Assembly: GCA_951406725.2 (NCBI GenBank) | Contig: OX597830.1 | Span: 79,608,001 to 79,672,000, forward strand | Direction: 5' to 3' | Length of the DNA stretch: 64,000 nt | From: Octopus vulgaris | Lineage: Eukaryota | Part shown: in pieces, positions 33,009-62,280 of the stretch | Numbering within the stretch: position 1 is the stretch's first letter | Layout: every line of letters starts with the position of its first letter | Position numbers and translations under genes: made by a program | Notes under the pieces: model-generated | What the model saw: only the letters and a program-made list of their open reading frames with translations | Told to the model about the DNA's origin: nothing | The model's database searches: none

Positions 33009-33060
<52 letters not shown>

Positions 33061-33211: not shown

Positions 33212-33281
33212 TTGGAATTCTTTGTCACTATAACTGTCTTTTTCAGCCGATGATTCTAAATTCCTTTCAGAAGATGGTGAT
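33212..33281 (-). CDS. TRPM N-terminal extension exon (SPSSERNLESSAEKDSYSDKEFQ)
   Basis: tag|...|gtaat; 70 nt with a single open frame, phase 2 to 0; the paralogous exon differs by two in-frame 12-nt indels. Confidence 0.75.
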
Positions 33282-34795
33282 CTACAAAAAATGAACCACG
33301 GAGAAAGTTTAAGATTAGTGAAAGTTGTTTGTCATATGGAGTGTAGTTAACATTCTGGACATTTGAACTTCATCTAAAAGTTAAGAAAAGGAGAAAAGTG
33401 ATATTGTTGCATGGGTTGGGAGAAAGAAACAATGGAATATTACTGAAAGACCAATATAGGAGGTGATGAGAAGGATGACCAAGAGGAAGTTAAGGTCAGA
33501 ATGAGTCTGGGTCTGGTGAACAAAGGCGGAGAGGAAAGCTAAGAACATATGAGGAGAACGTAGAAAGAGTCAGTGAGGATTATGACTAAATTTATGGAGT
33601 AATATCTATGTGTATTTAGACCTGTTGTGAAATTAGGAATACATTTCAATAAGTAGCTTTGAACAATTTTATTTCAAAAGAGAGGTCAGCAAATCTTGAC
33701 GAAGTGCTCAGACAGTAAAACTCGTCAGTTTGATTTTTATTACAAGCTGCTGAAAATATAGTTCATAGACTTCATTTCACATCAAAAGGTACATTTACGC
33801 ATTAAGTATGGGGTGTAAATACTCATGTAATTAATATCAAGTCATCAAATTTCTACAATTTTAAATGGCATTTAATTGGTACAATTTTGATTGTGTTTTG
33901 ATATATAGCCTTCTGCCATTTGTCTCGGATTTGTGGAATGTGTAGGTGTGTGAGATATGATGAACTGTAAAAGACAGTAAATCTGCTTAGTTTAATTCAC
34001 ATCTCTAGAAAATCTTCTGCTTCAATGTATGATTTCTTACATAAAATAAGACCTCAAATTTCAACAATTACCATAAGGTTTTTGTTTGACCGTTTTATAA
34101 TTCTGATAATCCACTACCTTTTCTTCAGATGTATATTAAGACACAAACAAACAATAACATTAGAAGAGATAAACTGATAGGTTAAACATTTCTGAATTGA
34201 CTGTATGTATTTGGTGGAGATACTTAGCGTTTATGGGGCAAATTTCAAAGCTACACTAAATACACGGTAGTAACACACTTTACATTGTTCTTAGTTTGCA
34301 CGGATTTACTTGAGCATCGCTTTTGTTGGAACCAAAATGTTTTCGCTTTTCCCTTTATATCTACAGGAATCCCTTTTGTAGTTTCCGATTCAATATTTCC
34401 TTTTCCTTATCGTTATAACGTCATTTCATTTCTTCAATACAAAAGGCTCTGACTAATGCCTAAATTAGAATTAATATCATATATTTATAAATATCTGGTT
34501 AATATTTTCGAGACTAAATAATAATTTCAAATGTCCAGAAAATTGATTTTTTTAGAACTGAAGATATATTATCAAATCTAGTTCAAAATGGTCAAAGTCG
34601 TCAACAGAAACTATGAAAGAGTGAAGTATAAAAGAAAAAACAGAAACAAAGAAACAATCAGAGCCAGTAAAATTGCTGGATCTCTTGTAACTTTAAAACA
34701 AACATCACACCTTCATGGTTACATTACATCAACAAAGGAAAATACTTTACTTCAAATAGAATATAAAATCCAATATCACCATAATACCTATACCA

Positions 34796-34839
<44 letters not shown>

Positions 34840-36475
34840 GTTTATTTTTCTTCGAAAAGGATTTTTTACTCGATTGCTTGGAAGTGCTAAGGTGGAAACC
34901 GAGATGTATAACTTGGTATAAGAAGAGACAAAAATTGAAATAATCATTTCATATTTATGAATTACATCAACATAATAAATACATAACTACATACACAGAT
35001 ATAACATATATTAAATTTAAGGTTAAAGGACGTTGAAATGAGGACTAATAGTTATAAGATACATCGACAGTAGTTAGAAATCCTAATTATAGATTTAAAA
35101 TTTTAGAAGAGTTCCGAAGAAATGATGTACAGAGGTTTATAACATCAATATGAAGCAATTCGAAGGCCGTTTTTGGAGTCCATTAGTCAGCAGGTATGAA
35201 TCCTTTCGATTCACACTGACATGTCCCCTTTACTAGGGATAAATAAATAGATAATTAATCAAGTTTGAAGACATGTAAGAGAAAAGAAAAGAAAGGAAGG
35301 AAATTTCTGGTTACATTACGTTGGTCGTCGGCAACTCTGTCAGATACTGACCACTTTTACGATGATTCACGCTTATATACAAAAGGAAACTTCTAGTGTA
35401 GGATGATGGGTGAAGTTTAAAAAACAATCGATTTTCCAATAAATTCCGAGAATAATCAATTACTAATAGCAGAAGAAGCAGGACTGCCAAATACTTCATT
35501 CCTTGTACTTCGTCTTATAGAGTTCCATGAAAGATGAGTGAAATTTATGGGTTCATGAATGAATGGTATCAGACAATTTATTTAATATGCCCGAATTGCA
35601 ATATTATAAAATAATGTATGATTCTCTAATGCATAACGTACATTTGTTACCTATAGCATTATAGGGGAGGCCATTTGCTAGTATATATGCTCTTATTCCT
35701 TAAATTATGTATATATGAGGGTAGAGTAGTAGAATTTTTATATTTAATGTTAGTAAATGAATTTAAATGCGTTCTATAACTTTTTTTTTAAATACAACAG
35801 TACTAACTATATATGTTCCAGTCTGATACTTATCTGATACTACTGTACATCCGTATACTACATTTTAATGAAGACAGAATCATTCAAGTGGGCATAAATC
35901 GATTTTTATACAACTACATATTTTCCCTAATTTATTTTTGCTATTATCTATATATTTTGGAGGGGTGGATTTCCATTATTTAAGGCTACCTTAAAGAATT
36001 TTAGTTGAGGAAATCAACTCCGGGACTCATTCTTTGTAAGTCTAGTACTTATTCTATAGGTCTATCCGCGAACCGGTAAGTTACGGGAACGTAAACACAC
36101 TAACGTCGGTTGTGAGACGATAGTGGAAGGAAAATACAGACACGAAGACACACACATACACATATACATAATATACGACGGTCTTCCTTTGGTTTCCCTC
36201 TACCAAGTCCACTCACAAGGCTTTGGTCGGTCCGAGGCCTTAGTAGAAGAAATCGTTTTGCCATCGCGCCCAGACAGGTATATAATGTTGAAAAGCTACA
36301 AAAATGTCGAAACACCGATATCCATCATTCCAAAATGGGAATGAGGGTGAGTTATCTCGCCTGTCTATGATTAAGTTGTTTTAACACCGTCGAAATTAGC
36401 CTTATATACTCCACTACACTATTGTGGACAACTGACACTTTCCATCATATCATATAAGCTACTGTGAGTTTTCAC

Positions 36476-36518
<43 letters not shown>

Positions 36519-36520
36519 TT

Positions 36521-36968
36521 GTTATATTTCGGAATGGTCATTTTGCAAGTTTAGCCAATAAAAACACACGCACTATATACTTGGTGTTACTTTGCTTCAG
36601 TGTTATTTATGTTTTTACATTAATCTTAATCTTATTTCGGCCAGAGTTCTTTCGTCACACTCCTGTGACCGCTGCAGTGGTCTTTTGTTTTCTTCTTTCT
36701 TATTTGTGTCTCTCTTTACTAACCGTCAGCCATTTTGTGTTTCTATTGTATGTGTCTTCATTTGCGCATGCTTATATCTCTATGTGCGTCTATGTTTATT
36801 TAGTGTGTGTATGTGGGAAGATGCCTGCAATATTTGTATCTTCTGTTTATATACGTTCGTGTAATTTGTTTTTGTTTTTGTTTATTCTTATTTTGTTCAT
36901 GTGTTTAAATCCACATATTATTATTATCATTACGTATGATTGTATGTATGTATGTATAACAACAATAC

Positions 36969-37009
<41 letters not shown>

Positions 37010-37500
37010 CATTTTAAAACATTTCAAAAATTAAAAATTTTTTAAAATAAAAAAAAATCTTTTAAATTTAATAAAGAGATTATATAGTTATTTATTTCTA
37101 TTTGTATATTTATCTGTGTATTTTATTCATTATGTTTTTGGTTTTGTTTATATTGTAACCAGTTTATGGGGATCCTCTACTGTCATATGTTGTGATGTGT
37201 GCTAGTGTTCCATTCCAGTTACCTATTCAGGCTAGGTTTATCTTCTATTATGTGTGTAGCTTCCGTAATTTGTCTGAATGTTGCATCTGTTCTATGCGTA
37301 GACAAGATTTTAACATCTCTGTTGTTGATTGATCTCCCGTGTTCCTGCTCGGCGTATTGGTACAGAATCGATGAGCTTTTACCTTCCTTAAGTTCTCTCC
37401 AATGTCCATTTACCCGCTCTCCTATGCTTCGTGCCGTTTCCCCTAGGTATGTCGTTGTCTTGTTACTGTATCATCCCTCTATACATCTTATACTATAGAC
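36521..37500 (-). mobile_element. 5'-truncated PLE (GIY-YIG end + 3' repeat)
   Basis: TYLGETARSIGE...EATHIIEDKPSLNR GIY-YIG C-terminus; hammerhead-like motif at 36639-36682. Confidence 0.75.
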
Positions 37501-37639
37501 TACTATTATCTTAGCCTGAATATTTAAAATTTTATAATTATTAATTTTTATCAATATTAATTATTTACTATTATTCATTTTCATTTTTATTAAATTTCAT
37601 ATTTTAACATTTTTGTATACTTTCTTTTATTATTATCTT

Positions 37640-37825
37640 TTAGGCGGCGAACTGGCAGAATCGTAAGCGCGTCGCTTCGTTCGGATTTCAAATTCCACCG
37701 AGTCGACTTTGCTTTTCATCCTTTTGAGGGTCGATAAATTAAGTACCAGTAAAAACACTGGAGTCGGTGTAACCGACTAATCTCTACCCCACAAACATGA
37801 GACCTTGTGCCTACAGTAGAATGGA
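37640..37825 (+). mobile_element. SINE
   Basis: ggcggcgaactggcagaatcg head and the same body as 2558-2745. Confidence 0.6.
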
Positions 37826-39257
37826 TTATTATTATCACCTTATTTTATTATTATTATTATTTTACTTAAATAAAAATATTAACACACACACACAAATAAC
37901 AAAGCATATTTCATCTACTTTGTTGGAGTATCTCAGCCGATCAGCATGTAACTTCCTTTCGGCTTTCGAAACCGCAACTCCAAATCACCATGCAATAACC
38001 TATCACTAGACCAATGAAATTTTACCTCCGATCAGAACTGGACCCTCAAGAAAATAAACAGAGTGACTCGGTAAGAGAATCAAACAACAGGAACGTTTCA
38101 TGACCATTCCCCACAGGCAAGACAACCAGGCAGAATGTCAAACTTGGTCTCCAGAATGAATAAGAATAAGAATTATAACGAATCAAAAATTGTATCCTTT
38201 CACAGAAAAGATTATAGATACACGGATTCCAAAGCAGTCCGTTACAGGCGAAAAACCCTCTACGCGACGGTAAAAAGAATCACGTGCAAGATGAAAGAAA
38301 CTGTAACAAAATCCCTTTTGCTTACTCTCTTCTTTCTTTATTTGTTTCTCTCTTAAATCAGTATGACTGAACTTTTGGTGATCCACATCTTTTATATACT
38401 TCGCCCATCATTTTCTGATATTATTGAATTTTGTGAACATTTAATCATTTAAATATGTTTTCTAATTCGCAAACAAAATAGGGCTTTGGGACCGAGAAGA
38501 GGAGGTAACGCTTATAAAATGTCTTGAAGGATGGTGAACATAGCGACAGAAAATTTGCGACTGTTCAGCTACGGGACCAGTGTAAGTAGGGAAGAAAAAG
38601 AGGTACTGGCAGTTGGTCACGCGACAGCAGCAGGCAGAGGAGAAAGACTGCAGGGTGAGAGAACGACAGAGAAAAATAGGGAAGGGATGAAGGGAAAGAA
38701 GAAAGGCTGGGAATACAAGAGAGAGAAGGAGTAAGTAGAAAGTCTATAATAAATAAATACTACCATACATATATGTGTATATGTATATATATTAAGTATG
38801 TAGGTATGTTTTAAAATGTATGGGCTATTTACGGAGTGCTCATAGAGAGCCTACACGAAAAAATACAGAGTAGAGAAAATTTAAAACGCAAGTCTTAGTA
38901 AGTCAAACAGATTCCCGAACGCATAAAGGAGAAATTTCAATCGAAGTAGTTGAATCATATATATTTATACACATCAACATAAATCATGCATGTACAGGCG
39001 TGAAAATTCCCTAAGGTTATAAAGAATGAAATCAAACATACATAGAAATATAGAAGAAATATAAAATATATGTAAAAATACTTATTAAATTACATATAAA
39101 TAAATTTACATACAACGAGTTATACGTGATAAATATAGGAGGTGCAAAGTGGATGAGAGATTGGTACATTCTGTAAGGATCAGATATCGAGATATGTAGG
39201 TATTTAGTGGGTCTTTCGATATGATGAAAGTTTATCTGGAAATGTCTGTCTACTTAC

Positions 39258-39313
39258 ATATCAAAAGATGTCGATGCCACAGGCGGTTGAATTTGTGTTT
39301 CTGTTGTTTCAGG
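39258..39313 (-). CDS. TRPM N-terminal extension exon (PETTETQIQPPVASTSFD)
   Basis: ttttctctag|...|gtaagt; 56 nt, phase 0 to 2, fits between neighbouring exons. Confidence 0.75.
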
Positions 39314-40145
39314 CTAGAGAAAAGAGGAAAAACAATGTTAATTGTTGAAAGAAACGTTTGGGTTAGTATTTCTAGGTATAGAAAACATGTTTTAAGTAAA
39401 ATATATGTTTGAAGGAGGAGGTATATAAGTAACAGTAGTAAGCAAGAGGCAAAGAATAACCACATCTAAAAGTCTAACAACTACACACGGATATAGACAC
39501 AGAAAAATCCATTTACAGAAAAACGATAAACAGTTTTATTTTCAATTTAGTTTTAGAGATTTCAACATGGTTAGCATCATTGAATTCAAATGAAGGTCTG
39601 AAATCGTATTTACAACTATTTTATTTTTATGAAGTTCAGTATTTATGACGTCAGTGCAGATCCTTTTAATGTCTTACTAATTTAGGCATAATTAAATAAA
39701 ATCTTTAGGAAAATAATAACATCAGATGCAATATGAAACACAATTTATATATATATATAAATGAATTATAAAGTTCACATCCTGAAATCATCAAAAGACT
39801 CCCAAAGCCTAAAATTCAAAGAAGGAAAACAGTAAAGACATTAAATAGTTCTATAAGTTATAGAAAGTTTTTTTAAAATTATGATGACCATATAAATATC
39901 ATTTAATGTAAGTTTATTTAAGCGTGTACATATTAATTCTACATTTTCCCAATTGAAGAACGGACATAAATTCTTGCGTAAGAAATGCTTGAAAAAATTA
40001 GACGATGCCAAATACGCTTTTAACAACTTCATCGCCACCAGAACGCAGGTCATATTGATCCCATGTAATCTCCTCCATGTTCTGAGGTCAACATTCACTC
40101 TCTTCTATAAAGCCAAAAGTCCTGTGATCGGTGTAACACACACAC

Positions 40146-40208
<63 letters not shown>

Positions 40209-40422
40209 CATGTGCACATATGATTGTGTGTATTATCTATGTATATATATATATGTATATATACATACTTACATACATACATACATACCCATTGATTTGC
40301 CGCTAGTGCTTATAGTGTCGAATACTTTCGGTATGCAAATTAGGGACTCTTACATAGAGTAACTGCTGCATTTGCTGAGTATATAAATAGTTTGGCTGCT
40401 TGCTTCCCTGGAGACTGTCAGA

Positions 40423-40486
40423 ATAATGTAGACGCCTCTGATGAGAACGCAACAAGGGTTGAAAATCAATTAAGGTTGTTCATTAT
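40423..40486 (+). ncRNA. Hammerhead-like motif (degenerate)
   Basis: Interrupted stem I ATAATG..GACGCCT/AGGT.GTTCATTAT, core CTGATGA, AAC/GTT stem II, GAAA, near-palindromic stem III, TA. Confidence 0.45.
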
Positions 40487-40548
40487 GTTTTTTTCAATCT
40501 GTGGAGAAATGCCTAAACTTTGCCCTGTTCATAATTATACCATATGTT

Positions 40549-40622
<74 letters not shown>

Positions 40623-41079
40623 GGAAATTAGAAACTGGCTCTACTGGTTTAACTTATGATACGATGATTCTTTCCATCTCTAATAATATGATATACAGAA
40701 GCTGGTTTTTCTAATATTAAAAATTGTCCCCAGTGATATTAAAATGAAAACCACTACACTGACTGTAATAATATAACAAAATGGAAGCCTGCAATAAATA
40801 TATAGAATTTAGTAGCTGAATCTACCAAAAAGAGATAAAATAGAGTTCTACCTTCTTCAAAAATTGCAGATAGCTCTACCAGTCTGAAAAATAATAGCTT
40901 GGTCTACCAGTATAAAAGATAGCAACCAGTCGTATCAATGTGAGAATATATATTAAATTATTCATAAACAGAATATACAGAGTTCATTTGAAGCAAATCC
41001 TTTGATGAAATTCTCAAGAAATATTCCATGACAATTCAGAACTATTCAAGTATATTTTAAGATTTAAAAAAAAGCTTAC

Positions 41080-41128
41080 TTGTTTGGGTTTCTGACCAGA
41101 TACCTCAGCAATTTCTGGAAGTTCTAGT
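41080..41128 (-). CDS. TRPM N-terminal extension exon (LELPEIAEVSGQKPKQ)
   Basis: ttttgcag|...|gtaagc; 49 nt, single open frame, phase 2 to 0. Confidence 0.72.
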
Positions 41129-41612
41129 CTGCAAAATCAATAAATGGTAAAATTCCAGGTCAGTAAAATGAATTGTCATGATGTGTATAAAGATGAATAT
41201 TTAAGTCTTTATCCTTTAACTGTGAACGTCGAATAGAAAAGCTGTGTTATTACATGGAAAGAAATCGAGACAATGGAAAAAAAACTCAGTTTAAGGTGAA
41301 AAGTTATGCACAGAAAGAATGATTCAGATACAGATGAAGGTTGTGAGATAAACAAAGATCAAAGGAAGCTAAGAAATTAAGAGAGAATTCAGAAAGAGGC
41401 AATTCCTCAAAGAGAAGCAAGTCGAAATATACCGAAAATGGCAGAAAAGGTGGAGAAATTAAACTTAACAGAAGCAATTGATAAACAATAAGAACAGCAG
41501 GAATTATACCATAGAAATTATTCTATTCTCATACACACACATACAGACACACACACAAGCACACACACACATACACACACACATACATACACACACACAC
41601 ACACACATACAT

Positions 41613-41667
<55 letters not shown>

Positions 41668-41949
41668 AAAAGAGGTGTTTCCATGCAGCAAAAAGAAATG
41701 GGCAAATTTGTTGTACCTATATATATATAATTAATTAAAAAAAGACGGACTAAAAGGACAAGTAAAACAACATCGCGAGGACTTGACACATGCAAATTGT
41801 GAATAAGACGCTCACAGAATGAAAGAAAGAAAGAGTGTTTTACGTTTCGAGCAAAGGTTTTTTCAGAAACAGGAGATGGCGTAAAATTCAAGAGAAAAGG
41901 AAGACAGGGAAAATAAGGATTGGATGTGGTGAATTTATGCACTAGTTCC

Positions 41950-43100
41950 CACACCATTATGATATAAAGCAATCCTCTTCTGGCTAGAAAAATACCCAGA
42001 AGAGATCCCAGGACGCATCAACCACAGCTTCATAATCCCAGCACTGAAATTTAACCTCCAGAACAACTACTTCATGTCCGATACAGTTTACTATCAAGAA
42101 AAATGTGGAATTGCAGTGGAACCTCGTGCTGCCCCACTGATTGCGAATTTTGTAATCTAGAAATTAAAATATACCAATTATCACAGCAAAAATATGGTAC
42201 CTCAAAGGAATTAGACATACGAGCCTTAAGGGAAGTTAACCGAAATACTACACCAAATTTAAATGTACTCCTATACATCTCCACATATAACTCCAGAAAC
42301 AATGAGGCATTCAACATCATCATCCAGAATTTACCCATTCGCACTGGGGATAAACAATGAACGAAATTTTGGACTCACACAAAATTATCAAAATTTAACC
42401 GGCGCAAGATTATATCCCTTAACAACGGAACCAAAGGTGGAAAATGGGGGTTGCCTAACTGGGGCACATGCTTCCACCTTTTGGGGGGTACATAATTTCA
42501 CTTCAAACAAGGTGAAATATTTAAGATAAAGTCACATTTCACTTTGCCTCTGAAAACCAAATCTATGTCATTACTTGCTTAGGTTGCCAAAACCACTATA
42601 TAGGACAAACACGAAGATCAACGCTTCAAAAACAACAAATCAGTTTCCCACAGTATAGACAGATAGATGTTAGTGAGCACAAGGATAGATGTGATAGGAG
42701 TCTTAAACCAAACTTCCTAATTTTCCCTTTTTATCAATGCTCCCAGAACACCTCAGTGCAGTAAAGACTAAAAAAAGTGGCAACTTTCAGTAATAAATAT
42801 CAACCACAACTTAACATGAACACACAACTTAATACAGGACACTACTAACCTTACTAATACAAGTAATCCCACTAATCCACAAACATCTCATATACCATTC
42901 ATACTCTATTAATCATATTAATCTAATTGCATCACTTTCAGAACAGCTTACCTCTCTTGCATACAGATACAGATACAGGTACTATTAGACCCAACAGCGT
43001 TTGTAAATTGGTGTTGATTCAAAGTTAGTGAACAGCGATGTCGAAACCGGTATGACTTTCTATAATGACTCATGGTAAGGATTTTTATACTTCTTAATTT
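41950..43100 (+). mobile_element. Degenerate, internally deleted Neptune-like PLE
   Basis: Fragments homologous to the 28342-30618 ORF (LQNNYF, STYNSRN.EAF, YIGQT, FPFYQC); ends in a hammerhead-like motif. Confidence 0.75.
43021..43059 (+). ncRNA. Minimal hammerhead-like motif with G3:C8 core
   Basis: AAAGTTA-GTGAACA-GCGATGTC-GAAA-CCGG-TA-TGACTTT; 7-bp stem I. Confidence 0.55.
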
Positions 43101-43220
43101 CCCCTCAAATCATTTATTTGTATATATATATATATCTTTGTTCTAAGAAAAGGAACCATTACTTTTATGCCTAGTGTGCATTTTCTTTGTTTCTTTTTAT
43201 TTTTCCTTTTATATATATAC

Positions 43221-43593
43221 TAGCAGTATCGCCCGGCGTTGCTCGGGTTTGTAAGGGAAATAACTATATAAGCATTTTTAGAGAGTTATAGCCAAAAAAT
43301 GGAAAACAAATGATGGTAATTTTTTTTTTTAGTTAAAAAGGTCGAGTTGCGTCCCCTAGACAGTCTGTGGTTTGTGTTTCTGATTCTCGACCCCATGTCG
43401 AATTTATCGATTTTTTTCAGAACTGGGGGAACTTTTCAAAATTTTCGCTGCGTTAGTTTTGAATTATGACATTGGGCTATGTGTGTGTCAAGTTTCATCA
43501 GAATCGGTTGAAAGCCGTGGTCAGGGTGAGGGTACAACCTAACAGACACACAGAAACACACACAGACAAACTGCCGTTTATATATAGAGAGAT
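43221..43593 (+). mobile_element. Non-autonomous Helitron-like element
   Basis: tactagc...cccggcgttgctcggg terminal hairpin, aagtttcatcagaatcggtt core, acagaca repeats and tttatatatagag end. Confidence 0.6.
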
Positions 43594-44159
43594 ATTATAA
43601 TTATTATCATTATTAATATTATTTTACCTGCTCTTCTCCCACTGTTCTATCCTATTACTCTGTTATTTTCTCCTTCACTCTTCCTTGCTCACGTGGCTCC
43701 CGCGTGACCATCGGACATCTTTCTTATTTTCTCTCCGTTGTAGCTGGAACAAGGAAGACGTGTTCTTGCTTGTGTCATGTCCTAGCTTAATTTACGCGTT
43801 CATAACCACAACCTCGTTTAGGCTTAACAGCCCTTCCTGTTTCTTTTCACTGTCCTGGTTGTGTTACCTATTTTGATCCTCCGCAAAATCCCAAATTCTA
43901 CTTAATTTGCTTTGCGGGAGCAACTGTTTTATCGAATGCGTATATTGTTGTTAAATGCTCGATATACGAGAATAGAGAAACAACCAGAAACTGATGAACG
44001 GTCGTTCTTCATGTTTGTTTTGTTTTCATTTTCGTTTCATAATTCACTATTTTGCACACACGCGCGCGCGCACAGCCATATATAGAAATAAACAACAGCT
44101 AAAAACGTATATGTATAAGTCACAGAGACTCGCTAATTCTTCATCAGGTTTTCGCTAAA

Positions 44160-45700: not shown

Positions 45701-45758
45701 CAGTGCTTATGATATTATTTGGCATTGCTGTGTGGTCACTATGTACGATTTCCTAATG

Positions 45759-48242: not shown

Positions 48243-48329
48243 TACCATCACTGCTTATATCTCTCTGAGATATTTAGAAATTTAATATTTCTATTTTTTG
48301 TGATCAGTGGATTTATTTCACTGGAATTA

Positions 48330-50417: not shown

Positions 50418-50488
<71 letters not shown>

Positions 50489-50830
50489 AAACTTATAAGT
50501 TTAAATTATTTAAATAATTTTTAAAATTTTAACTTTAATTTAAATATTTTAATTTGGAATTTTATATTTTTTATATTTATATTTTATATTTTTTAAATTA
50601 ATTTTATTTCTATGTATTGGCTTATGATTTTCATTGTTTGATTTGCCTAATAGTGGTTTTATCTCTAATTTAATATAATATATATTAATACTATAAAATT
50701 AGATTTAATCCTAAATCTAATTTTTCTCTGTAAGTTTGGATTTACTCCCTAATAATATTATTATTATTATTATTATTATATATAATATATATATATGTAT
50801 ATATATACATGTATATATACATACATTCAT

Positions 50831-50867
<37 letters not shown>

Positions 50868-51251
50868 CATCTCGAAACAGTAAACTGGAAAAATTGTTGG
50901 CGTTGTTTGTTTCCCATTGGACATTTTTTCATTTCCTAATAGGAGTTACCAAGGAACAAATGGAGAAGGAATAGAGAATTATCACAATACAAAATTTACA
51001 TTTGGATGAAGCTTTAATACAGTGTCCGAACAATAAGCGATCATGTGTTTATATGTGTCTATATACTGTAATATAGCGACAACGTGGTTGTGGTATTTAT
51101 AATAAGTAAGGAATTAAGGTTATTTAGGCTATTAACTGCCTAATTGTCTTATGCTTGTCAGATATTATTCCCTGACCCTCTATTGTCTTTCATCTTCCAT
51201 CAGTGAATTTATTCTACGATAAGGAAACGTTATTTGAAAATGTCTACTTAC

Positions 51252-51295
51252 TTTCGAGTATGTTTCAGTAGCTTCCTTTTCTCTTCTCCTCCTAT
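51252..51295 (-). CDS. TRPM N-terminal extension exon (IGGEEKRKLLKHTR)
   Basis: ttttctag|...|gtaagt; 44 nt, phase 0 to 2; flanking intron homologous to those of exons 39258-39313 and 62225-62280. Confidence 0.7.
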
Positions 51296-52849
51296 CTAGA
51301 AAATAATACAAACAATATTATTTGCTAAACAAAATGACGGAGTGAAATCTTTTAGCGGTTAAAACCAAGATTTAAGTAATATGAAGAAGGAGGTATATAA
51401 GTAACAATAGTATGCAGAAAGACAAAAAATAACTACAACTAATAATCTACACACACATATAAACACAGAAAAATACATTTATTTAAAAAGTAATTTGTGC
51501 TTTCAGTTTAGTTTTTGTGATCTGAACATATTTATTATCATTGTTTCCCAATAGAATTTTGCAATCTCATCTACAATTATTGTATTTTTATATGGTTCAG
51601 TATTTGCGATGCGATGTTTGTGTAAATGTTTTGTATTCAGAGGCTGGATCACCACAATGCAGTATCTGCTTCGTAATCAACTTAAATAGGCCCTCTCGTA
51701 ATCTTTCAGCATCGAACGTTCGGTCTGCCGAGGATACCCTCTCTTCACTCTCTTATAAGTTTGGGTGTTGGAAGCTTTACTGTATAGACAGGAGATTTTG
51801 TGGGGTCCTTCGCTGGAACTAGGTCACAGGAAAACCATATCTACATGCAAGGACGCCACCACTGTCATGCTGGATACTTCGGATTTGTGGTATCATGGTA
51901 TCATTCTTGTAGGGACTTCTTGTTGAGCTGTATCTAGGTATAGGTGACCACTCGTCAGACTTAAATTACTGAAGGCGCATCAGTTATTTGTGTCAGAAGA
52001 GTCACCTATACTGCTAAGCACTTTATCGGAGAGATATCAATGCTCATTCTATGACCGGCCTATAACTTTTGACTTCCTAAAAGATACAGTACCGCTTTAA
52101 TGCTTTAGAATGTGCTTTTTGATTAAACAATTTCCACCTAAAGTACTGTTCCCATTTCCTTAAATTACATTATGATCAGCTTCTTCCACTAAACCGTTAG
52201 TTTTCTTTAAAAAATTGTGTTCTCCTGGTTTATAAAAAAGTTTTCACAATAAGAATAGCTAACCACAAGCGTTCTTCTTTTGAAAACTTTTATATCTGTG
52301 ACTAGCAGGAACGCTTAAGGTGATTATTCTTGTAAAAGCTTCGATGTCTCGGAACAATTTGACCCATAATGTAATTGTAAAATCCGTGTAACTCTCCTTT
52401 AAATGGGAATTGTTTTATTAAAAGCATGAACGTATATAAGAAATGACTGTTATGGTTGTTAACCTTCATGTAAATGATAAAGTTGTATCCATCTGGCCAA
52501 CATATAAGAAATGACTGTCAACTTTCATTTGTTTCCTTCTGGCCAATATCATCATGGGTGCATATAACCCCCTGAACTATGATCTCCGGTATTTCAGTCT
52601 ATAAAGGAAACAAACATCGCACAGGCTTTGACTAATGCCAAGTACAAGATAACTAAATATAAGTTTAAGGAAAACTAAAAACATAATTTACTAAACTTAA
52701 GTATCACAACAAACAAAAATACAAATAGTTTTTCTAAGACGAATAAATTATGACCTTGATAATATCAATTCAAAGTTATTCCTTCTGCAAATTTTTGTTT
52801 TGTTGTTCATATGCAAAATCTTCTTGATAGACAATTTCTCCTGTTTTAA

Positions 52850-53150
52850 TAGTAGGGCGAAAATGAAAAGTTTGTCATTGTTCCTCTTTCAAAATCTGGC
52901 CTTGGGGCTTATTAATGGACATCACAAAAGACTGACGTATTGGAAATTGAAGTCGTTTGAACTCGAAAGGCATATTGGCAGGTATCAAAGGTAAGCGAGG
53001 AATATTCACCGTTTCCACAGGCAGAAATTATTGTGGTCTCTATGACATTCCTTGATAATTTCATGGCAATAAGTCTTGTGCCATTGCACAGCCTTTGTTT
53101 AGAAAGGTTGCGCAGAAGTCTGACTGGAGCGCCTATTTTCAATCGAAGGC
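52850..53150 (-). mobile_element. Helitron PIF1 helicase fragment
   Basis: LKIGAPVRLLRNL...LCNGTRL...PFEFKRLQFP...MSINK motifs. Confidence 0.8.
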
Positions 53151-53609
53151 AACAAGTAGGAGCTCTTTAATATTCAATGAGTATACTACACAAGCTACAC
53201 ACAGCAAGGACAAAGAAACAAAAGTAGAATGTAAAAAGCTTAAAAACGAACGCACAAGAACAGATTCGAACGCAGACAATAGACATTACAAACACAGACA
53301 GCAAAAACAAATCAAAAGAAAAAGAAAGATAACCAACCCACTACACCAAATTAACATCACTAAGCATATAACACAAGCAACACACAGCAAGGAGAAAAAG
53401 ACAAAAATAAAATTTACACGTGTTAAAAAATTTTTGTAAAAATGTTGAATGACGTTAACTGAACTGTGGGGTTCGAGTAGACGTCATTCCACATTTTCAT
53501 TTATCATTACTATTCTTTTCGTTCGATTTAATTTTCCTCCACTGTTGTGTTTTGTTTGTCCTTATGCTGTCCCCTCTGGGTTTCAACTCTATGTGGTTAA
53601 TAAAAGAAT

Positions 53610-54325
53610 TTCAGTCGGCGAGGTACGCCTTTGTGTTGCGGTTGGTTATTTATTGGTTATTTATTGTTTGAAGTCGTTCTATTGCCGTTGTTTCATTCGG
53701 GACTACCTCGTGTTTGAAAACTTAGTGTCTTTTGACACACTGTTCGCCTGAACAAGCTTGGTTTTCCTCTTGTTCCCCTGTTGTGGGCGAATTTTTTGCG
53801 TTTTGTATGGGGATTGTGCCCGCACAAAATGACTAGTGATTTGTATGATGTGTCGGAGCTCATACAGAATCTCAACTCGGAGTACGAAACCGACTCGTAA
53901 AAAAGTGTGGATGATTATGCGGCAGCGGTCAATAGGCGGCAAAGAAGATAGAATATCAGGACGGAGGCCGTGGAAACATTTTAACCAATTCTGCGGGGAG
54001 AAGCAACAAGCGTGAGGTTGACTACCCCACCCCAGAAAACGAGAAGAAGAACGATAATTTAACGCTATCTCTTAAAAATAAGAGAATAGAGATAGCGTCT
54101 ATCGAAGAAATGGAAAATGTTTTAAAGCTTATGTTCAATTTACAATATATGAAAAGAGGCAAGAAATTAGGTAGCGTGGAGGTACAGTTCATATCAGAAT
54201 ACGACACTAGGGGTGATTCTGCGATCACCCTGCAGACGAAAAGCTGGCTCTTTTACCGTCATACTTTGGCAAAAGAAACATAGAAGTCGCAATAGAAAGA
54301 TATTCACCTGAAATTAGACCGGCGT
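53610..54325 (+). mobile_element. 5' part of another gag-like ORF1 element
   Basis: SIEEMENVL..YMKRGKKLGSVEVQF resembles the ORF1 segment of the 48.4-kb element; truncated by a MITE. Confidence 0.4.
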
Positions 54326-54336
54326 GTATAAATATA

Positions 54337-54739
54337 GGATCTTTCGGTTTGAACAGCAGTTTTTAACATAATTTCTACGTAAATAAAAACTTCGTATACT
54401 GGTAGAATGTGTTTATAAAACATCTTTTTCTCTTGGCTTTATTGAGAAAATTCTATAGTTTGTAAGATATTTGTTGTTTTTTTCTTCAATTTCTGCAATT
54501 TCAACCTATCACTGACGTCCATTGAGGTAAACAACATTCTGTGCCGTATGAATATGTCCCAACAGATTGGGTTTATTTACATTTCTGAAGAAAAAAGATA
54601 CCCTTCCCCACCCCTAACTCTAACCCTAACTAACCCTAAAATAGATTGACATGCAATAGATCGGTACTAGGGTCATAATTATGGGTTACAATTTCATATG
54701 ACACCGCTAGAAAAACTGCCGTTCAAACCGAAAAGATCC
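54337..54739. mobile_element. MITE with about 27-bp TIRs
   Basis: GGATCTTTCGGTTTGAACAGCAGTTTTT...AAAAACTGCCGTTCAAACCGAAAAGATCC; near-identical 8-bp flanks taaatata/aaaatata. Confidence 0.8.
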
Positions 54740-55144
54740 AAAATATATGTATACAAAATATAAATAGAATACATTTTTTACATATTTATAGAGATATTAG
54801 TTTATAAGTTTATTGCTTATATATTTTTTACACATAATTTTTCTGTATTCTACCCCCAGACTGCCTTTTTCTTGTGTGTATTTTGTGTATATGGAATCCG
54901 TTGTGCGCGCGTGTGGATGTGTGCGTGTGTACGTGCAGGCGAGTATTGCGCATATAGACGTGTTGTACTCATTGTTTTTTAACACATTTTCATGTATAAA
55001 AGATAAAGAGAGAGAGAGAGAATTGAAGGCGTTCGAGTCAAAAAGAAAAAGTACAGTTTGACATTATATATATATTTATACATATATTGATAAAACTGAT
55101 AAGACAGCGAAAGAATGAAAGAGACCTCGATATTATGTAAATAG

Positions 55145-55205
55145 AGGAGTGCCCCAGCATGGCCACAGCTCATGAGCTGAAACTAGATAAAATAAAATAA
55201 ATAAT
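55145..55205 (+). mobile_element. CR1-type 3' tail fragment
   Basis: gtgccccagcatggccacagctcatgagctgaaactaga nearly identical to the LINE end near 22447-22486. Confidence 0.75.
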
Positions 55206-55243
55206 AACAAAAATGTAATCTGTGGCAATTATTCGGTAGCTGT

Positions 55244-55304
55244 GATAAAACTCCGAGTTTCAGATGCCGAGGTGGAAATCCACGCCGCCATCTCTTCAGT
55301 TATC
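55244..55304 (-). ncRNA. Type I hammerhead ribozyme motif
   Basis: GATAA-CTGAAGA-GATG..GTGG(ATTT)CCAC..CATC-T-GAA-ACTC(G)GAGT-T-TTATC. Confidence 0.6.
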
Positions 55305-55599
55305 CGGCCATCGGGAAATATGCTATGCAAAACGACCGTTATACAAAGGGAAATTACTGTGTGAATGATCGTTAGTAAGACTAAAGAGCTATTTGAATGA
55401 CCGCTAAGTGAGGGGAGGGAGTAAAAGTAAGAGGGTAAAAAGGTTCATAGTATTCGCGTAAGCGTGCATGTTCATACCTACACATGCGTGCCCGCACACC
55501 AACGTGCATGCGCCTAAAAGTATTATACACTCATCCACCCTCACTTGAAACACACACAACCTCACCCGCACCATTCGCCAAATATATATATATATATAT

Positions 55600-57090
55600 A
55601 TATTATATTAAATTAGAGATAAAACCACTATGAGGCAAATCAAACAGTGAAAAACATAAGCCAATACATAAAATTAATCTCGCTAAGATAAGTTTTTATT
55701 TATATTTAAGATCTTTAAATTGTAAATTTTAATATTTTATAAGTCTTTGGTGTAATAATATTTTTCTTATGTAAATATCGTTGTTTATGTAATGATCTAA
55801 TTATCGTAATTTTCTATATAATTATTAGATATTAAATTTAAGTTTATTCGTAAGATATTACTTAGCGATAGATATGTTGTTTGGTAGCAAGTATACGAGT
55901 TGTCTAAAGTTAGGTTTATGTATATACATGTATTAATAGCATTAATTGTAGTTTTAAATTTCTTATAATTAAAATTAGATAAACTTAGATATGTTTCGAT
56001 CAAAGATTGGTCCAGGCCATGTCTAACTTAATAGCATAACTTAGTTATTGTCTTTCTAAATTGATATTTGCTAGTTTTATTCCCATTGATAAATATATTT
56101 ATAGTATTTATAGTATTTATTCGATACTATATAACTACGAATTGATTATTTCAGTAAGTATTTTAAATATAAGATTTCCGAAAGTTCGTTTAAGTTTGTT
56201 TGTTTGTATTTTTGAAATTAGCTATTTCATCTTTAAATATGAAAAATTAATTTATTAGGTCTTTATTATATGTGCATATATATTTATTTATAGAGATTAT
56301 TTTAGATCTTAATTATTATATTTATATAAATTTATATATTTTCATTGATAATTTATATATAATAGTCATTTTTTAAAAAAATATTTATGTAATTAGATAT
56401 AGACTATTACCGATATAAGATAATTGGTGGGTTTCTTACCTTAAAAATTAAAATTAATATTTAACATTATAATCGATTTTGATGTAATCATAATCGTTAA
56501 GTTTTAAGTTTCTAGTTTGAAAATAGAGATTATTATAAGTAAAATTATTATATTATTTATATCTTAAAAGTATTGTTTAACTATTTCTGATTATTTTTAA
56601 AATATTTCAATTAACCTGAAGATTGACTGTAACCATAATTCGAATTATTAATTGAATTTAAATTATTGTTATTCGAATTCGTACAGCCATGAAACGATCG
56701 TAGTGTTTTACACTTCATCTTTTATTAAACTTTTAATACTTTTGATATTTATATAATAATTAAAAAAATAATAAATAAATAAATTTATAAATAAAATAAT
56801 ATATAAATATAAAAATATACATACATATAAATATATATATATATTTGTATATATATATTTAAAATTTATAAGTTTAAATTATTTAAATAATTCTTTTAAA
56901 TTTTAAATTTTATATTTTTTAATTAATTTAATGTAATGGCTTATGCGTTTCACTGTTTGATTTGCCTAATAGTGGTTTTATCTCTAATTTAATATAATAT
57001 AATATAATATATTTATACTATAAAATTGGATTTAATCCTAAATCTAATATTTCCCTGTAAGCTTGGATTTATTCCCTAATATTATTATTA
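55600..57090 (+). mobile_element. AT-rich non-autonomous PLE-like element with terminal inversion and hammerhead motif
   Basis: 55603-55665 is inverted relative to 56935-57000; the 3' part is repeated at 50480-50750; CTGAAGA...GAAACGATCGTA at 56616-56702. Confidence 0.55.
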
Positions 57091-57207
57091 TTACTTTATA
57101 TATATATATATATATATATACAACCCCCCACACACACGCGCGCGCTCAAAAAAGTTCATTCCCACGTCCATATGCACCTATAGACATGGAAAACAGGGCT
57201 CGAGGCA

Positions 57208-57266
<59 letters not shown>

Positions 57267-57276
57267 TGTGTGTGTG

Positions 57277-57550
57277 GAGGCGCAATGGCCCAGTGGTTAG
57301 AGCAGCGGACTCGCGGTCGTAGGATCGCGGTTTCGATTCCCAGATCAGGCGTTGTAAGTGTTTATTCAGCGAAAACAGCGGCAGCGGGTGGTGGCGATCC
57401 CTGCTGTACGCTTTCGCCGCAACTTTCTTCTGATGGCCTGCTCATTTAGCCAGCGGGGTGGCGTCATTTGAAGGTTAAATCAATGCAAAGCGCATTGTGA
57501 CCAGCGATGTGTAGCAAAATCTGAAAGCCTGGTCGGTCACGTGATCACGT
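57277..57550 (+). mobile_element. tRNA-derived SINE
   Basis: GGAGGCGCAATGGCCCAGTGGTTAG...GGTTTCGATTCC A/B boxes; related to the head of the 3320-3624 SINE. Confidence 0.8.
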
Positions 57551-57917
57551 GAGAAAAATATATATATATATATATATAAGTTCTAATTTACCCTAATTAT
57601 ACAAAAACGTCTGTAGCTGGTTCAACCATTGCGTGATATAGTAGTTATCACTACTAATAAAGAAAATTTATTTTGCTCTATGATTATGTAAAATAGTAAT
57701 CTAATCTATCACTACGAGAAATAGAACGCTGTTCCACATATGTGAAAAATAATAATCAGCTGTACATTGGTATACTGGAAAATGTATTAAGATATTCATA
57801 AGCAAAATTTATAAGGTTGCTGTTAAAACAGAGTCTTTGATGAAATTCCAAAACACACATTGGTCATAATTCGTGCAAACAGAAGTAATAAAGAAAAAAG
57901 GAAAAACATTAAATTAC

Positions 57918-57963
57918 TTGGGATTCTTCGTCTTCTTCAGCCGATGATTCAGAAGATGGTGAT
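57918..57963 (-). CDS. TRPM N-terminal extension exon (SPSSESSAEEDEESQ)
   Basis: 46 nt, phase 2 to 0; paralog of 33212-33281 with conserved splice sites. Confidence 0.72.
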
Positions 57964-59496
57964 CTACAAAAAATGAACCAAGGAGGAAGTTTAAGATTAG
58001 TGAAAGTTGTTTGTCATATGGAGTGTAGTTAACATTCTGGACATTTGAACTTCATCTAAAAGTTAAGAAAAGGAGAAAAGTGATATTGTTTCATGGGTTG
58101 GGAGCAAGAAACAATGGAATATTACTGAAAGACTAATATAGGAGGTGATGAGAAGGATAACCAAGAGGGAGTTAAGGTCAGAATGAGTCAGGGGCTAGAG
58201 GAATGGTCAGGGTCTGGTGAACAAAGGCGGAGAGAAAAGCTAAGAACATAGGAGGAGAAGGTAGAAAGAGTCAGTGAGGATTATGACTAAATTTATGGAG
58301 TAATATCTATGTGTATTTAGACCTGTTGTGAAATTAGGAATACATTTCAATAAGTAGCTTTGAATAATTTTATTTCAAAAGAGAGGTCAGCAAATCTTGA
58401 CGAAATGCTCAGACAGTAAAACTCGTCAGTTTGATTTTTATTACAAGCTGCTGAAAATATAGTTCATAGACTTCATTTCACACCAAAAGGTACATTTACG
58501 CATAAAGTCTGGGGTGTAAATACTCATGTAATTATATCAAGTCATCAAATTTCTACAATTTTAAATGGCATTTAATTGGTACAATTTTGATTGTGTTTTG
58601 ATATATAGCCTTCTGCCATTTATCTCGGTTTTGTGGGATGTGTGGGTGTGTGAGATATGATGAACTGTAAAAGACAGTAAATCTGCTTAATTTAATTCAC
58701 ATCTCTAGAAAAACTTCTGCTTCAATGTATGATTTCTTACATAAAATAAGACCTCAAATTTCAACAATTACCATAAGGTATTTTGTTTGACCGTTTTATA
58801 ATTCTGCTAATCCACTACATTTTCTTCAGATGTATATTAAGACACAAATAAACAGTAACATTAGAAGAGATAAACTGATAGGTTAAACATTTCTGAATTG
58901 ACTGTATGTATTTGGTGGAGATACTTAGCGTTTATGGGGTAAATTTCAAAGCTACACTAAATACACGGTGGTAACACACTTTACATTGTTCTTAGTTTGC
59001 ACGGATTTACTGGACCATCGCTTTTGTTGGAACCAAAGTGTTTTCGCTTTTCCCTTTATATCTACAGGAGACCCCTTTGTAGTTTCCGATTCAATATTTC
59101 CTTTTCCTTACCGTTATAACGTCGTTTCATTTCTTCAATACAAAAGGTTCTGACTAATGCTTAAATAAGAATTAATATCATATATTTATAAATATCTGAT
59201 AAATATTTTCGAGACTAAATAATAATTTCAAATGTCTAGAAAATTGATTTTTTTAGAACTGAAAATATATTATCAAATCTAGTTCAAAATGTTTAAAGTC
59301 GTCAACAGAAACTATGAAAGAGTGAAGTATAAAAGAAAAAAAAGAAACTAAGAAACAATCAGAGCCAGTAAAATTGCTGGATCTCTTGTAACTTTAAAGC
59401 AAACATCACACCTACATGGTTACATTACATCAAGAAAGGAAAATACTTTACTTCAAATAGAATAAAAAATCCAATATCACCATAATACCTATACCA

Positions 59497-59540
<44 letters not shown>

Positions 59541-59543
<3 letters not shown>

Positions 59544-59994
59544 ATATTTCGGAATGGTCATTTTGCCAGTTTAGCCAATAAAAACACACGCACTATATAT
59601 TTGGTGTTACTTTGCTTCAGTGCTATTTATTTTTTACATTAAACTTAATCTTATTTCGGTCAGAGTTCTTTCGTCACACTCCTGTGACCGCATCAGTGGT
59701 CCTTTGCTTTCTTATTTCTTATTTGTGTGTCTCTCCTTACTAACCGTCAGCCATTTTGCTTTTCTATTGTATGAGTCTACGTGTATTCATTTGCGCATGC
59801 TTATATCTCTATGTGCGTCTATGTTTAGTTAGTGTATGTGTGTGTGAATGCCTGTAATATTTGTATCTTCTGTTTATATACGTTCGTGTAATTTGTTTTT
59901 GTTTTTGTTTATTCTTATTTTGTTCATGTGTTTACATCCACATATTATTATCGTTACGTATGCTTGTATGTATGTACGTATAACAACAATACTA

Positions 59995-60051
<57 letters not shown>

Positions 60052-60545
60052 CATTTTAAAACATTTAAACATTTAAAAATTTAAAAAATAAAAAAAATCT
60101 TTTAAATTTAATAAAAAAAAATTATATAGTTATTTATTTCTATTTGTTTATTTATCTGTGTATTTTATTTATTATGTTTTCGGCTTTGTTTATATTGTAA
60201 CCAGTTTATGGGGATCCTCTACTGTCATATGTTGTGGTGTGTGCTAGTGTTCCATTCCAGTTTCCTATTCAGGCTAGGTTTATCTTCTATTATGTGTGTA
60301 GCTTCCGTAATTTGTCTGATTGTTGCATCTGTTCTATGCGTGGACAGGATTTTAACTTCTATGTTGTTGATTGATCCCCCGTGCTCATGCTCGGCATGTT
60401 GGTACCGAATCGATGAGCTTTTACCTTCCTTAAGTTCTCTCCAATGTCTATTTACCCACTCTCCTATGCTTCGTGCCGTTTCCCCTACGTATGTCACTGT
60501 CTTGTTACTGCATCATCCCTCTATACATCTTATACTATAGACTAC
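59541..60545 (-). mobile_element. 5'-truncated PLE (GIY-YIG end), duplicated copy
   Basis: ORF 60225..60497: TYVGETARSIGE..H; hammerhead-like motif at 59658-59702. Confidence 0.78.
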
Positions 60546-62224
60546 TATTATCTTAGCCTGAATATTTTAAGTTTTATAATTATTAATTTTTATCAATATT
60601 AATTATTTACTATTATTCATTTTCATTTTAATTAAATTTCATATTTTAACATTTTTGTATACTTTCTTTTATTATTTTCTTTTGAAGGTCGATAAATTAA
60701 GTACCAGTAAAAACACTGGAGTCGGTGTAGCCGACTAGTCTCTTCACCACAAACTCGAGACATTGTGCCTACAGTAGAAAGGATTATTATCATCACCTTA
60801 TTTTACTATATTACTATTTTTCTTAAATAAAAATATTAACACACACACACAAATAACAAAGCATATTTCATCTACTTTGTTGGAGTATCTCAACCGATCG
60901 GCATGTAACTTCCTTTCGGCCTTCGAAACTGCAACTCCAAATCACCATGCAATAACCTATCACTAGACCAATGAAATTTTACCTCCGATCAGAACTGGAC
61001 CCTCAAGAAAATAAACAGACTGACTCGGTAAGAGAATCAAACAACAGGAACGTTTCATGACCATTCCCCACAGGCAAGACAACCAGGCAGAATGTCAAAC
61101 TTGGTCTCCACAAAGAATAAGAATAAGAATTATAACGAATCAAAAATTATATCCTTTCACAGAAAAGATTATAGATACACGGATTCCAAAGCAGTCCGTT
61201 ACAGGCGAAAAACCCTCTACGCGACGGTAAAAGGAATCACGTGCAAGATGAAAGAAACTGTAACAAAATCCCTTTTGCTTACTCTCTTCTTTCTTTATTT
61301 GTTTCTCTCTTAAATCAGTATGACTGAACTTTTTGCGATCCACATTTTTTATATACTTCGCCCATCATTTTCTGATATTATTGAAATTTGTAAACATTTA
61401 ATCATTTAAATATGTTTTCTAATTCGCAAACAAAATAGGGCCTTGGGACCGAGGAGAAGAGGTAACGCTTAGAAAATGTCTTGGAAGATGGTGAACATAG
61501 CGACAGAAAATTTGCGACTGTTCAGCTACAGGACCAGTGTAAGAAGGGAAGAAAAAGGGGTACTGGCAGTTGGTCACGCGACAGCAGCAGGCAGAGGAGA
61601 AAGACTGCAGGGTGAGAGAACGACAGAGAAAAATACGGAAGGGATGAAGGGAAAGAAAAAAGGCTGGGAATACAAGAGAGAGAAGGAGTCAGTAGAAAGT
61701 CTATAATAAATAAATACACACACACACACACATATATGTATATGTATATATATATTAAGTATGTAGGTATGTTTTAAAATGTATGGGCTATTTACGGAGT
61801 GCTCATAGAGAGCCTACGCGAAAAAATACAGAGTAGAGAAAATTTAAAACGCAAGTCTTGGAAAGTCAAACAGATTCCCGAACGCATAAATGAGAAATTT
61901 CAATCGAAGTAGTTGAATCATATATATTTATACACATCAACATAAATCATGCATGTACAGGCGTGAAAATTCCCCAAGGTTATAAAGAATGAAATCAAAC
62001 ATACATAGAAATATAGAAGAAATATAAAAATTTATATAAAAATACTTATGAAATTACATATAAATAAATTTACATGTAACGAGTTATACGTGATAAATAT
62101 AGGAGGTGCAAAGTGGATGAGAGATTGGTACATTCTGTAAGGATCAGATATCGAGATATGTAGGTATTTAGCGTGTCTTTCGATATGATGAAGAAAGTTT
62201 ATCTGGAAATGTCTGTCTACTTAC

Positions 62225-62280
62225 ATATCAAAACATATCGATGCCAAAGGCGCTTGAATTAGTGTTTCTGTTGTTTCAGG
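62225..62280 (-). CDS. TRPM N-terminal extension exon (PETTETLIQAPLASICFD)
   Basis: 56 nt, phase 0 to 2; paralog of 39258-39313 with intact ag/gtaagt sites. Confidence 0.72.

Follow-up and report, generated by a model that had tools for sequence, protein, structure and literature searches.

The minus strand of a 64,000-nt stretch of Octopus vulgaris contig OX597830.1 (positions 79,608,001 to 79,672,000; hereafter the window) carries nine exons, A1, B1, A2, B2, A3, B3, C, D and E in order of transcription, that encode the N-terminal part of a TRPM protein. The window sequence is eukaryotic, has ~34% G+C and is rich in microsatellites and retroelement pieces; an Rfam scan over its whole length gave no matches. 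An initial annotation of this DNA had described six exons of 44-70 nt that alternate strictly between phases 0-2 and 2-0 and splice into one frame. All seven of the peptide starts that it quoted were located, each on the minus strand, and the structure was confirmed: each of the nine exons is bounded by an AG acceptor and a GT donor, the phases alternate from A1 through D, and the 622 nt joined from A1 to E give 207 codons with no stop. The donor of exon D, GTATTC, is non-consensus, and the models P0003, P0005 and P0009 skip this exon. The assignment to TRPM also stood. Exon E (60 residues) matched Pfam LSDAT_euk, the SLOG domain of TRPM, with an E-value of 3.4e-11, and its PDB matches were all TRPM chains or TRPM-annotated entries (31 of 31), TRPM1-4 and 7 among them. 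P0009, an O. vulgaris hypothetical protein, was identical to the first seven exons over 120 of 120 residues and is very probably the automatic gene model either of this locus or of a copy identical to it. No further exon was found downstream of exon E, in the last 3.8 kb of the window; the channel exons of this copy, if any, would lie outside it. Three intronic stretches on the minus strand (10465-10494, 9908-9964 and 10581-10652) appear as spurious exons in P0009, P0005 and P0003, respectively (100%, 100% and 88% identity). Because they are shared with these models, at least three near-identical genomic copies of the region are indicated.

The lineage of proteins to which exon E belongs was absent from the initial annotation and is a more unusual feature than the exon pairs. 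When exon E was searched against longer proteins, nine matches were obtained among 70 candidates, all from Octopus. Eight of these nine closest homologues contain two to four LSDAT_euk stretches and no Ion_trans domain according to Pfam. Fifteen models were mapped on reference units, giving five unit kinds (U1-U5) that are 45-62% identical to one another; exon E is 69-97% identical to the U1 rows compared to 54-68% for the listed U2-U4 rows. P0001 and P0002 both read U1-U2-U3-U4a, and in P0004 the U4 unit runs on into an acidic linker. P0147 holds U4, the linker, U5 and the channel in one model, while P0013 extends from the tail of U4 through the linker and U5 to melastatin homology regions (MHR) 3/4 and into a membrane region shared with the channel model P0008. 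Mapped on P0004, the two O. bimaculoides models P0002 and P0013 leave a gap of 35 residues between the end of the former and the start of the latter. There is no MHR3/4 or pore between the units. MHR3/4 is present in the lineage members P0008, P0013 and P0147 and absent from P0009, the model that matches the window locus; the six-helix channel, TRP helix and coiled coil are present in P0008 and partly in P0147, and are found neither in the window nor in P0009. Tiled together, these models from three octopus species suggest a parent protein of ~2,650 aa with the order tail-U1-U2-U3-U4-linker-U5-MHR3/4-six-helix channel-coiled coil and without NUDT9-H. This is the reading towards which we lean.

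A tree was built from 40 SLOG half-domains (41 were found, and one short P0009 piece was dropped). Every unit kind formed a clade of its own, with supports of 100/100 for U1, 100/100 for U2, 96/97 for U3, 99/99 for U4 and 100/99 for U5. All five units together form one clade (97/92) that is nested among octopus TRPM paralogues and in which U5 branches first. Each unit clade spans species, so that grouping is by position rather than by species; the U3/U4 hybrid row of P0004 is the single row outside the unit clades. Since the units are orthologous across species, the array would predate the split from O. bimaculoides and be ~34 million years old or more. The split is placed at ~34 million years ago in the accessible text of PMC10700109, and a range starting at 13.3 million years is cited in that of PMC13282606. 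Orthologue identity is 73-87% for U1-U5, 75% for MHR3/4 and 59% for the tail, compared to 90-97% in three ordinary octopus TRPM pairs. Judged by these identities, change is faster in the multi-unit lineage than in ordinary octopus TRPMs.

The MHR1/2 domain of TRPM2 clamps ADP-ribose through Y295, R302 and R358 (human numbering) and the β5-α3 loop, and its closure gates the channel (PMC6759353, accessible text). A Cys3His zinc motif between β1 and β2 stabilises this domain (PMC9112350, accessible text). The three pocket residues are beyond the window and were read from homologous unit rows. At the positions of Y295/R302/R358, U5 has S/R/Q, U3 has F or S/K/Q or K, U2 has gap/R/R, and U1 has F/R/R in O. 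bimaculoides and F/R/P in O. sinensis and O. vulgaris. The equivalent of R358 is thus kept in three of three U2 rows and in the O. bimaculoides U1, and is replaced in all U3 and U5 rows and in the U4 rows that reach it. Exon E has the loop IGGRED compared to TGGAKN in canonical TRPM2-like proteins, which we take to be the β5-α3 loop. At the C/D junction in the window the zinc insert has been deleted, as it has in every unit row spanning the site. P0150 and P0152 retain it, and in P0150, the canonical octopus paralogue, F/R/R and the TGGAKN loop are kept as well.

The channel half of the lineage was read from P0008 and P0147. Neither model gave a Nudix or NUDT9-type match, and both end after the coiled coil. 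P0008 has the S2-S3 acidic motifs of the calcium site, presumably equivalent to human E843, Q846, N869 and D872, and the P0147 model is without the S2 motif. The pore motif is YAE in both lineage channels compared to YGE in three of three other octopus TRPMs, a change that may alter selectivity. The predicted fold of P0008 corresponds to a whole TRPM subunit, with a predicted local distance difference test score (pLDDT) of 67 and a template modelling (TM) score of ~0.7 to TRPM structures.

Table 1. Exons of the TRPM locus and duplicated intron sequence in the window
Feature	Position	Strand	Description
Exon A1	62225..62280 (56 nt)	-	phase 0-2; Pro/Thr-rich type Ap; present in O. vulgaris model P0009
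Exon B1	57918..57963 (46 nt)	-	phase 2-0; Ser/Glu-rich type Bs
Exon A2	51252..51295 (44 nt)	-	phase 0-2; Lys-rich type Ak
Exon B2	41080..41128 (49 nt)	-	phase 2-0; type Bq
Exon A3	39258..39313 (56 nt)	-	phase 0-2; type Ap; five differences from A1 in 56 nt, each non-synonymous
Exon B3	33212..33281 (70 nt)	-	phase 2-0; type Bs; 3 substitutions and two in-frame 12-nt indels relative to B1
Exon C	14369..14406	-	phase 0-2; first conserved TRPM helix
Exon D	9206..9290	-	phase 2-0; MHR1 start without Cys3His zinc-binding insert
Exon E	3806..3983	-	phase 0-1; start of SLOG/MHR1/2 domain, unit-1 (U1) type
Young duplicated block, copy 1	57858..63081		holds A1 and B1
Young duplicated block, copy 2	33151..39972		holds A3 and B3
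Old-duplication trace upstream of A2	51298..51605		homologous to 39318-39644 and 62285-62611
Orphan intron copy	17464..17735		78% to 40725-41004 (intron downstream of B2-type exon); no exon beside it

A disordered, rapidly evolving N-terminus had been proposed from the sequence, and both properties found support. The 107-residue tail encoded by A1-B3 is acidic and Ser/Thr/Pro-rich (17% Glu, 16% Ser), contains six CK2-type motifs and has a FoldIndex of -0.17, compared to +0.19 for exon E. In the AlphaFold model of P0008, residues 1-80 have no secondary structure and a pLDDT of ~30, a value also lowered by the few alignment rows over this tail, and most of the SLOG domain reaches 70-89. On these predictions the tail segment looks disordered. 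An ESM Atlas search with residues 14-156 of P0009 returned no feature match (best TM 0.33). All eight exon substitutions between the young copies (A1-B1 and A3-B3) are non-synonymous and both indels are 12 nt. The non-synonymous distance (pN) was 0.106 in the tail exons compared to 0.036 in the introns (p 0.006), and a Fisher test of exon versus intron gave p 0.055. Within these small numbers, the pattern fits a translated region that is frame-constrained and under little or diversifying residue constraint.

Tail exon types were labelled in nine models; the Ak exon of P0007 was below the cut-off and was read directly from the sequence. The order is Bq-Ap-Bs-Ak-Bq-Ap-Bs-C in P0005, P0006 and P0009, Bq-Ap-Bs-Ap-Bs-Ap'-Bn-C in the O. 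sinensis model P0001, and Bq-Ap-Bq-Ap'-Bn-C in P0008. P0007 has three Ap-Bs pairs and more, P0004 and the O. bimaculoides model P0002 have one pair only, and P0003 has Bq-C. The Bq-type exon that precedes A1 in P0009 points to a further copy beyond the window end. The window's exon types recur in O. sinensis LOC115221043 and 'TRPM-like 2 isoform X2' and in O. bimaculoides LOC106871768. The two phase classes alternate in every order, and the number of pairs ranges from one to four per paralogue. Since any 0-2 exon can follow any 2-0 exon, gain or loss of a pair keeps the frame, in agreement with the earlier description of the pairs as frame-neutral, and the compared orders indicate that tail pairs are gained and lost in the genome. 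Taken alone, the exon-pair tail is of modest interest, as a clear example of micro-exons turning over in a disordered segment without disturbing the frame.

The proposal that this tail arose by tandem duplication of one small exon pair, with flanking introns homologous across three units, was upheld in part. A1-B1 and A3-B3 are young copies, carried by two blocks that are 92-96% alike with one A-B pair each, but the blocks are 17.9 kb apart and not adjacent. The middle pair is not a third copy of the same exons: A2 and B2 have no peptide similarity to the outer A1/A3 and B1/B3 (p 0.96 and 0.40), and their kinship is confined to the introns. Among the introns upstream of A1, A2 and A3, three of three pairs align (80-97% over 222-318 nt), and none of 200 shuffles reached the score. 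Over the ~300 nt that end at the acceptor, the intron upstream of A2 is 78-79% identical to its A1 and A3 counterparts, and the older duplication is visible only in such introns. In the second intron set, 17480-17720 and 40750-41000 share 79% over 229 nt. The third proposed member, 57600-57850, shares only cores of 24-34 nt with the others (73 nt when donor-anchored), a weak match that nevertheless beats all 200 shuffles. The intron p-distance between the young blocks is 0.033-0.049 in four long stretches and 0.017 in a 60-nt stretch. With the substitution rate of 0.0036 per million years quoted in the accessible text of PMC13282606, the young duplication would be roughly 5-10 million years old, which is a crude estimate.

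The orphan intron block at 17474-17735 flanks no exon, is 15.5 kb from B3 and is without the 95-97% identity of the B1/B3 flanks. It was considered as B3's own intron continuing past the transposons, and this was rejected: its match to the B1 flank is limited to 24 nt, compared to 97% identity between the other B1/B3 flanks. In the paralogue P0003, a B2-type exon stands directly before C. The orphan block is a probable trace of a tail pair lost from the window copy. Such changes would come about by unequal crossing-over and by gene conversion, with homologous introns and units as partners. At 17733-17776, a perfect-stem hairpin (an inverted duplication) marks the edge of the orphan block; it ends an 80-nt element with a second copy at 63232-63313, and both copies adjoin long AT microsatellites.

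Other sources of tail exons were considered and rejected. A scan of the window's minus strand with nine paralogue N-termini found no further exon above the background seen on the plus strand, which disposes of a hidden seventh tail exon or remnant. The last 56 nt of the window, taken as the flank of another B exon, were only weakly above chance (6 of 300 shuffles). For an origin of the tail exons from the conserved exons C or D, exon C has no protein similarity to any tail type (p 0.25-0.89), and the similarity of the introns upstream of the A exons to the intron upstream of C was not above shuffles. Separately, ~100 nt upstream of exon D (9369-9469) are 79-80% identical to sequence upstream of A1 and A3 (62407-62519 and 39440-39552), with scores of 45-49, above 100 of 100 shuffles.

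Several observations weigh against the five-unit channel and against rapid change of the tail. A search at 780-2484 aa gave no record with five units and a channel among the best 120 of 272 matches. At 2485-5000 aa, 2744 candidates gave one match, a protein from Trichoplax in which SLOG and Ion_trans each occur twice; it looks like two whole Trichoplax TRPM genes fused and was rejected as a five-unit channel. Exon use rests on gene models, and the O. vulgaris models contain plainly spurious exons. P0009 has a U1/U2 hybrid and U3, skips D and E and ends without a channel; in P0008, the only well-formed octopus channel that carries this tail, there is just one SLOG domain, a U1/U5 hybrid; and five partial O. 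vulgaris models are on one contig. The AlphaFold fold of the two-unit P0006 is poor (mean pLDDT 45) and uninformative on unit packing. In the tail, the amino-acid excess amounts to eight substitutions, with p 0.11 for all being non-synonymous, and intron conversion could produce such an excess.

The alternative that survives best is that the window copy is a channel-less or decaying partial duplicate, either a soluble multi-SLOG protein or a young pseudogene from partial tandem copying, with a tail that is intact because the copy is recent. We give this a serious chance, if somewhat short of even; it and the five-unit channel are not mutually exclusive, since a five-unit parent may exist elsewhere in the cluster. 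The channel-less ending of P0009 and its skipping of D and E agree with it, as does the finding that five of five O. vulgaris hypothetical models among the matches to exon E, all without Ion_trans, are on one 79.96-Mb contig. P0003 links linker sequence to a Bq tail exon, as expected where partial copies abut, and this junction together with the shared contig indicates that partial tandem copies exist. The absence of synonymous changes beside eight non-synonymous ones would also be allowed by lost constraint. However, all nine exons are without stop or frameshift, both exon indels are 12 nt and all splice dinucleotides are intact. Moreover, channel-less models often end in apparent intron read-through, which suggests truncated annotation.

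We consider it unlikely that one giant locus acts as a splicing array, in which varying combinations of tail pairs and SLOG units, probably with shared intron phases, are spliced to a single channel module. Units do switch at matching points (U1 to U5 in P0008, U3 to U4 in P0004, and U1 to U2 in P0003, P0005 and P0009), and the tail phases let any pair drop out. Yet in the tree the models differ in sequence within one unit, and hence represent separate genomic copies, and the hybrids are equally well explained by genomic deletion. More doubtful still is an ordinary single-SLOG TRPM whose N-terminal tail is extended and alternatively spliced; the multi-SLOG models would then be annotation chimeras of neighbouring genes. 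P0008 (five member sequences) is indeed a tail with one SLOG domain and a full channel, and chimeric TRPM models such as P0011 and P0256 are known in databases. Against this, the order U1-U2-U3-U4 and the inter-unit sequence recur in independent annotations from three species, the units cluster by position rather than species and have no MHR3/4 or pore in between, and the P0008 domain is itself a U1/U5 hybrid. Finally, although the region is rich in repeats and microsatellites, we rejected as highly improbable an artefact in which two haplotypes were assembled in tandem as the young 5-7 kb duplicate: long intron stretches differ by 3.3-4.9% compared to an O. vulgaris heterozygosity of 1.22% (PMC10700109, accessible text), the 17.9 kb between the copies is distinct sequence that includes two other exons, and the order Ap-Bs-Ak-Bq-Ap-Bs recurs in the diverged P0005 and P0006.

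On the five-unit reading, the lineage would have grown by internal frame-preserving duplication at two scales, exon pairs and whole SLOG units, and exons C-E of the window are the start of U1. The tail encoded by the small exons of two complementary phase classes would serve as a disordered and probably phosphorylated spacer whose length can be adjusted. In O. vulgaris and O. sinensis, further copies of the parent gene would have arisen along one chromosome, accompanied by deletion or fusion of units. Its product may be a tetrameric, calcium-dependent cation channel that has kept the S2-S3 calcium site. ADP-ribose would no longer gate it as in TRPM2, since the pocket residues are gone from U5, which adjoins the pore. 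The clamshells further out may act as diverged modules for ligand binding or docking, part of the pocket being kept in U1 and U2. A sensory role of the lineage is putative, though plausible. A bolder extension, which we hold to be speculative and rather improbable, is a giant octopus TRPM whose every subunit would bear, besides a variable disordered tail, a chain of five diverged nucleotide-binding clamshells. Versions that differ in clamshell number and in hybrid make-up, some of them poreless, would arise by splicing or by deletion in individual copies, and a single locus would diversify ligand sensing much as cassette arrays do for recognition proteins.

The introns also contain transposable elements. 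In the B3-C intron, a Penelope-type retroelement (23266-33011) has long inverted terminal repeats (89%) and plus-strand open reading frames (ORFs) at 26903-28348 and 28288-30618. The reverse transcriptase ORF is open over 776 codons with a GIY-YIG-like end; upstream of it lies an overlapping -1-frame ORF of 481 codons, with a six-T run in the overlap. The 481-codon ORF gave no convincing Pfam match, and there was no Rfam match in the element. A two-ORF layout is unusual for Penelope elements. At 19410-22490 on the plus strand, a long interspersed nuclear element retains endonuclease and reverse transcriptase pieces, interrupted by a stop and a frame change, and its 3' end recurs inverted at 62825-62964. 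A fragment of a Pif1 helicase 2B domain (52912-53166, minus strand, E 7e-11) is probably a Helitron remnant.

Published surveys touch this lineage at its edges. The accessible table S1 of PMC13143021 classes three O. bimaculoides TRPM2-like proteins as beta; the accession of one of them is next to that of P0010. The lineage itself is nested among octopus TRPM2-like paralogues, in a tree without alpha, gamma or TRPS rows, and its membership of the beta clade is putative. LOC106871768 is not in the accessible part of the PMC13143021 supplement; the channel half of its gene may be one of the three beta genes. A 2026 octopus TRP survey excluded incomplete models and tabulates mostly one gene per subtype (PMC13402157, accessible text). 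Neither LOC115221043 nor LOC106871768 is in the accessible part of its supplement, and the TRPM cluster appears to have been filtered out. We found no description of tandem MHR1/2 units in the literature on octopus TRPM or on repeated SLOG/MHR domains, a literature in which subscription journals were mostly outside our scope.

Compared with known systems, the lineage is closest to the TRPM beta clade and TRPM2, as represented by human, zebrafish and Nematostella structures (PMC13143021, PMC6759353, accessible text). It shares with them the SLOG/MHR1/2 domain and, in its channels, MHR3/4, the six-helix pore, the TRP helix and the coiled coil; for both P0002 and P0150, the top PDB matches are chains of TRPM2. 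In contrast to TRPM2, which has one MHR1/2, the octopus lineage has up to five units, no NUDT9-H, a deleted Cys3His motif and a largely changed ADP-ribose pocket. The ordinary octopus TRPM beta paralogues (P0150/P0151, P0148/P0010 and P0149/P0017) are nearest in the tree, are also without NUDT9-H and are recorded on contigs that equal those of the multi-unit models in length, but they have one SLOG domain each and 90-97% orthologue identity, and P0150 keeps the zinc motif and pocket. By inspection, none of the window's tail exon types occurs in their N-termini. The TRPM records P0012 and P0070, which are gene models, likewise have two SLOG domains ahead of channel-type sequence. These differ in having only two units, ~34-40% identical to exon E, and P0070 repeats MHR3/4 as well; they show, as far as their sequences go, independent MHR duplications outside octopus and thus doubling in other lineages.

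A TRPM chain has one MHR1/2, one MHR3 and one MHR4 in its melastatin region (PMC13143021, accessible text). The octopus lineage departs from this, with two to four SLOG stretches in eight of the nine closest homologues and five distinct units, a layout that standard TRPM channels do not have and that would be new within the family. If the five-unit protein is real, the retention of five diverging MHR1/2 copies for ~34 million years or more implies that the domain can be chained. The lineage would then also offer a natural series for the role of MHR1/2 after loss of ADP-ribose binding, and the octopus TRP count would need revision. The role of MHR1/2 without ADP-ribose binding is a question for TRPM4, 5 and 8 as well. 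In cassette arrays of the Dscam and protocadherin type and in frame-neutral exon repeats, symmetric modules are copied, lost and reshuffled without frameshift. The 0-2/2-0 phases and the varied exon orders in nine models give the octopus tail the same frame-neutral modularity. Unlike those arrays, the module here is both a pair of asymmetric micro-exons and a whole multi-exon domain, and choice by splicing is putative.

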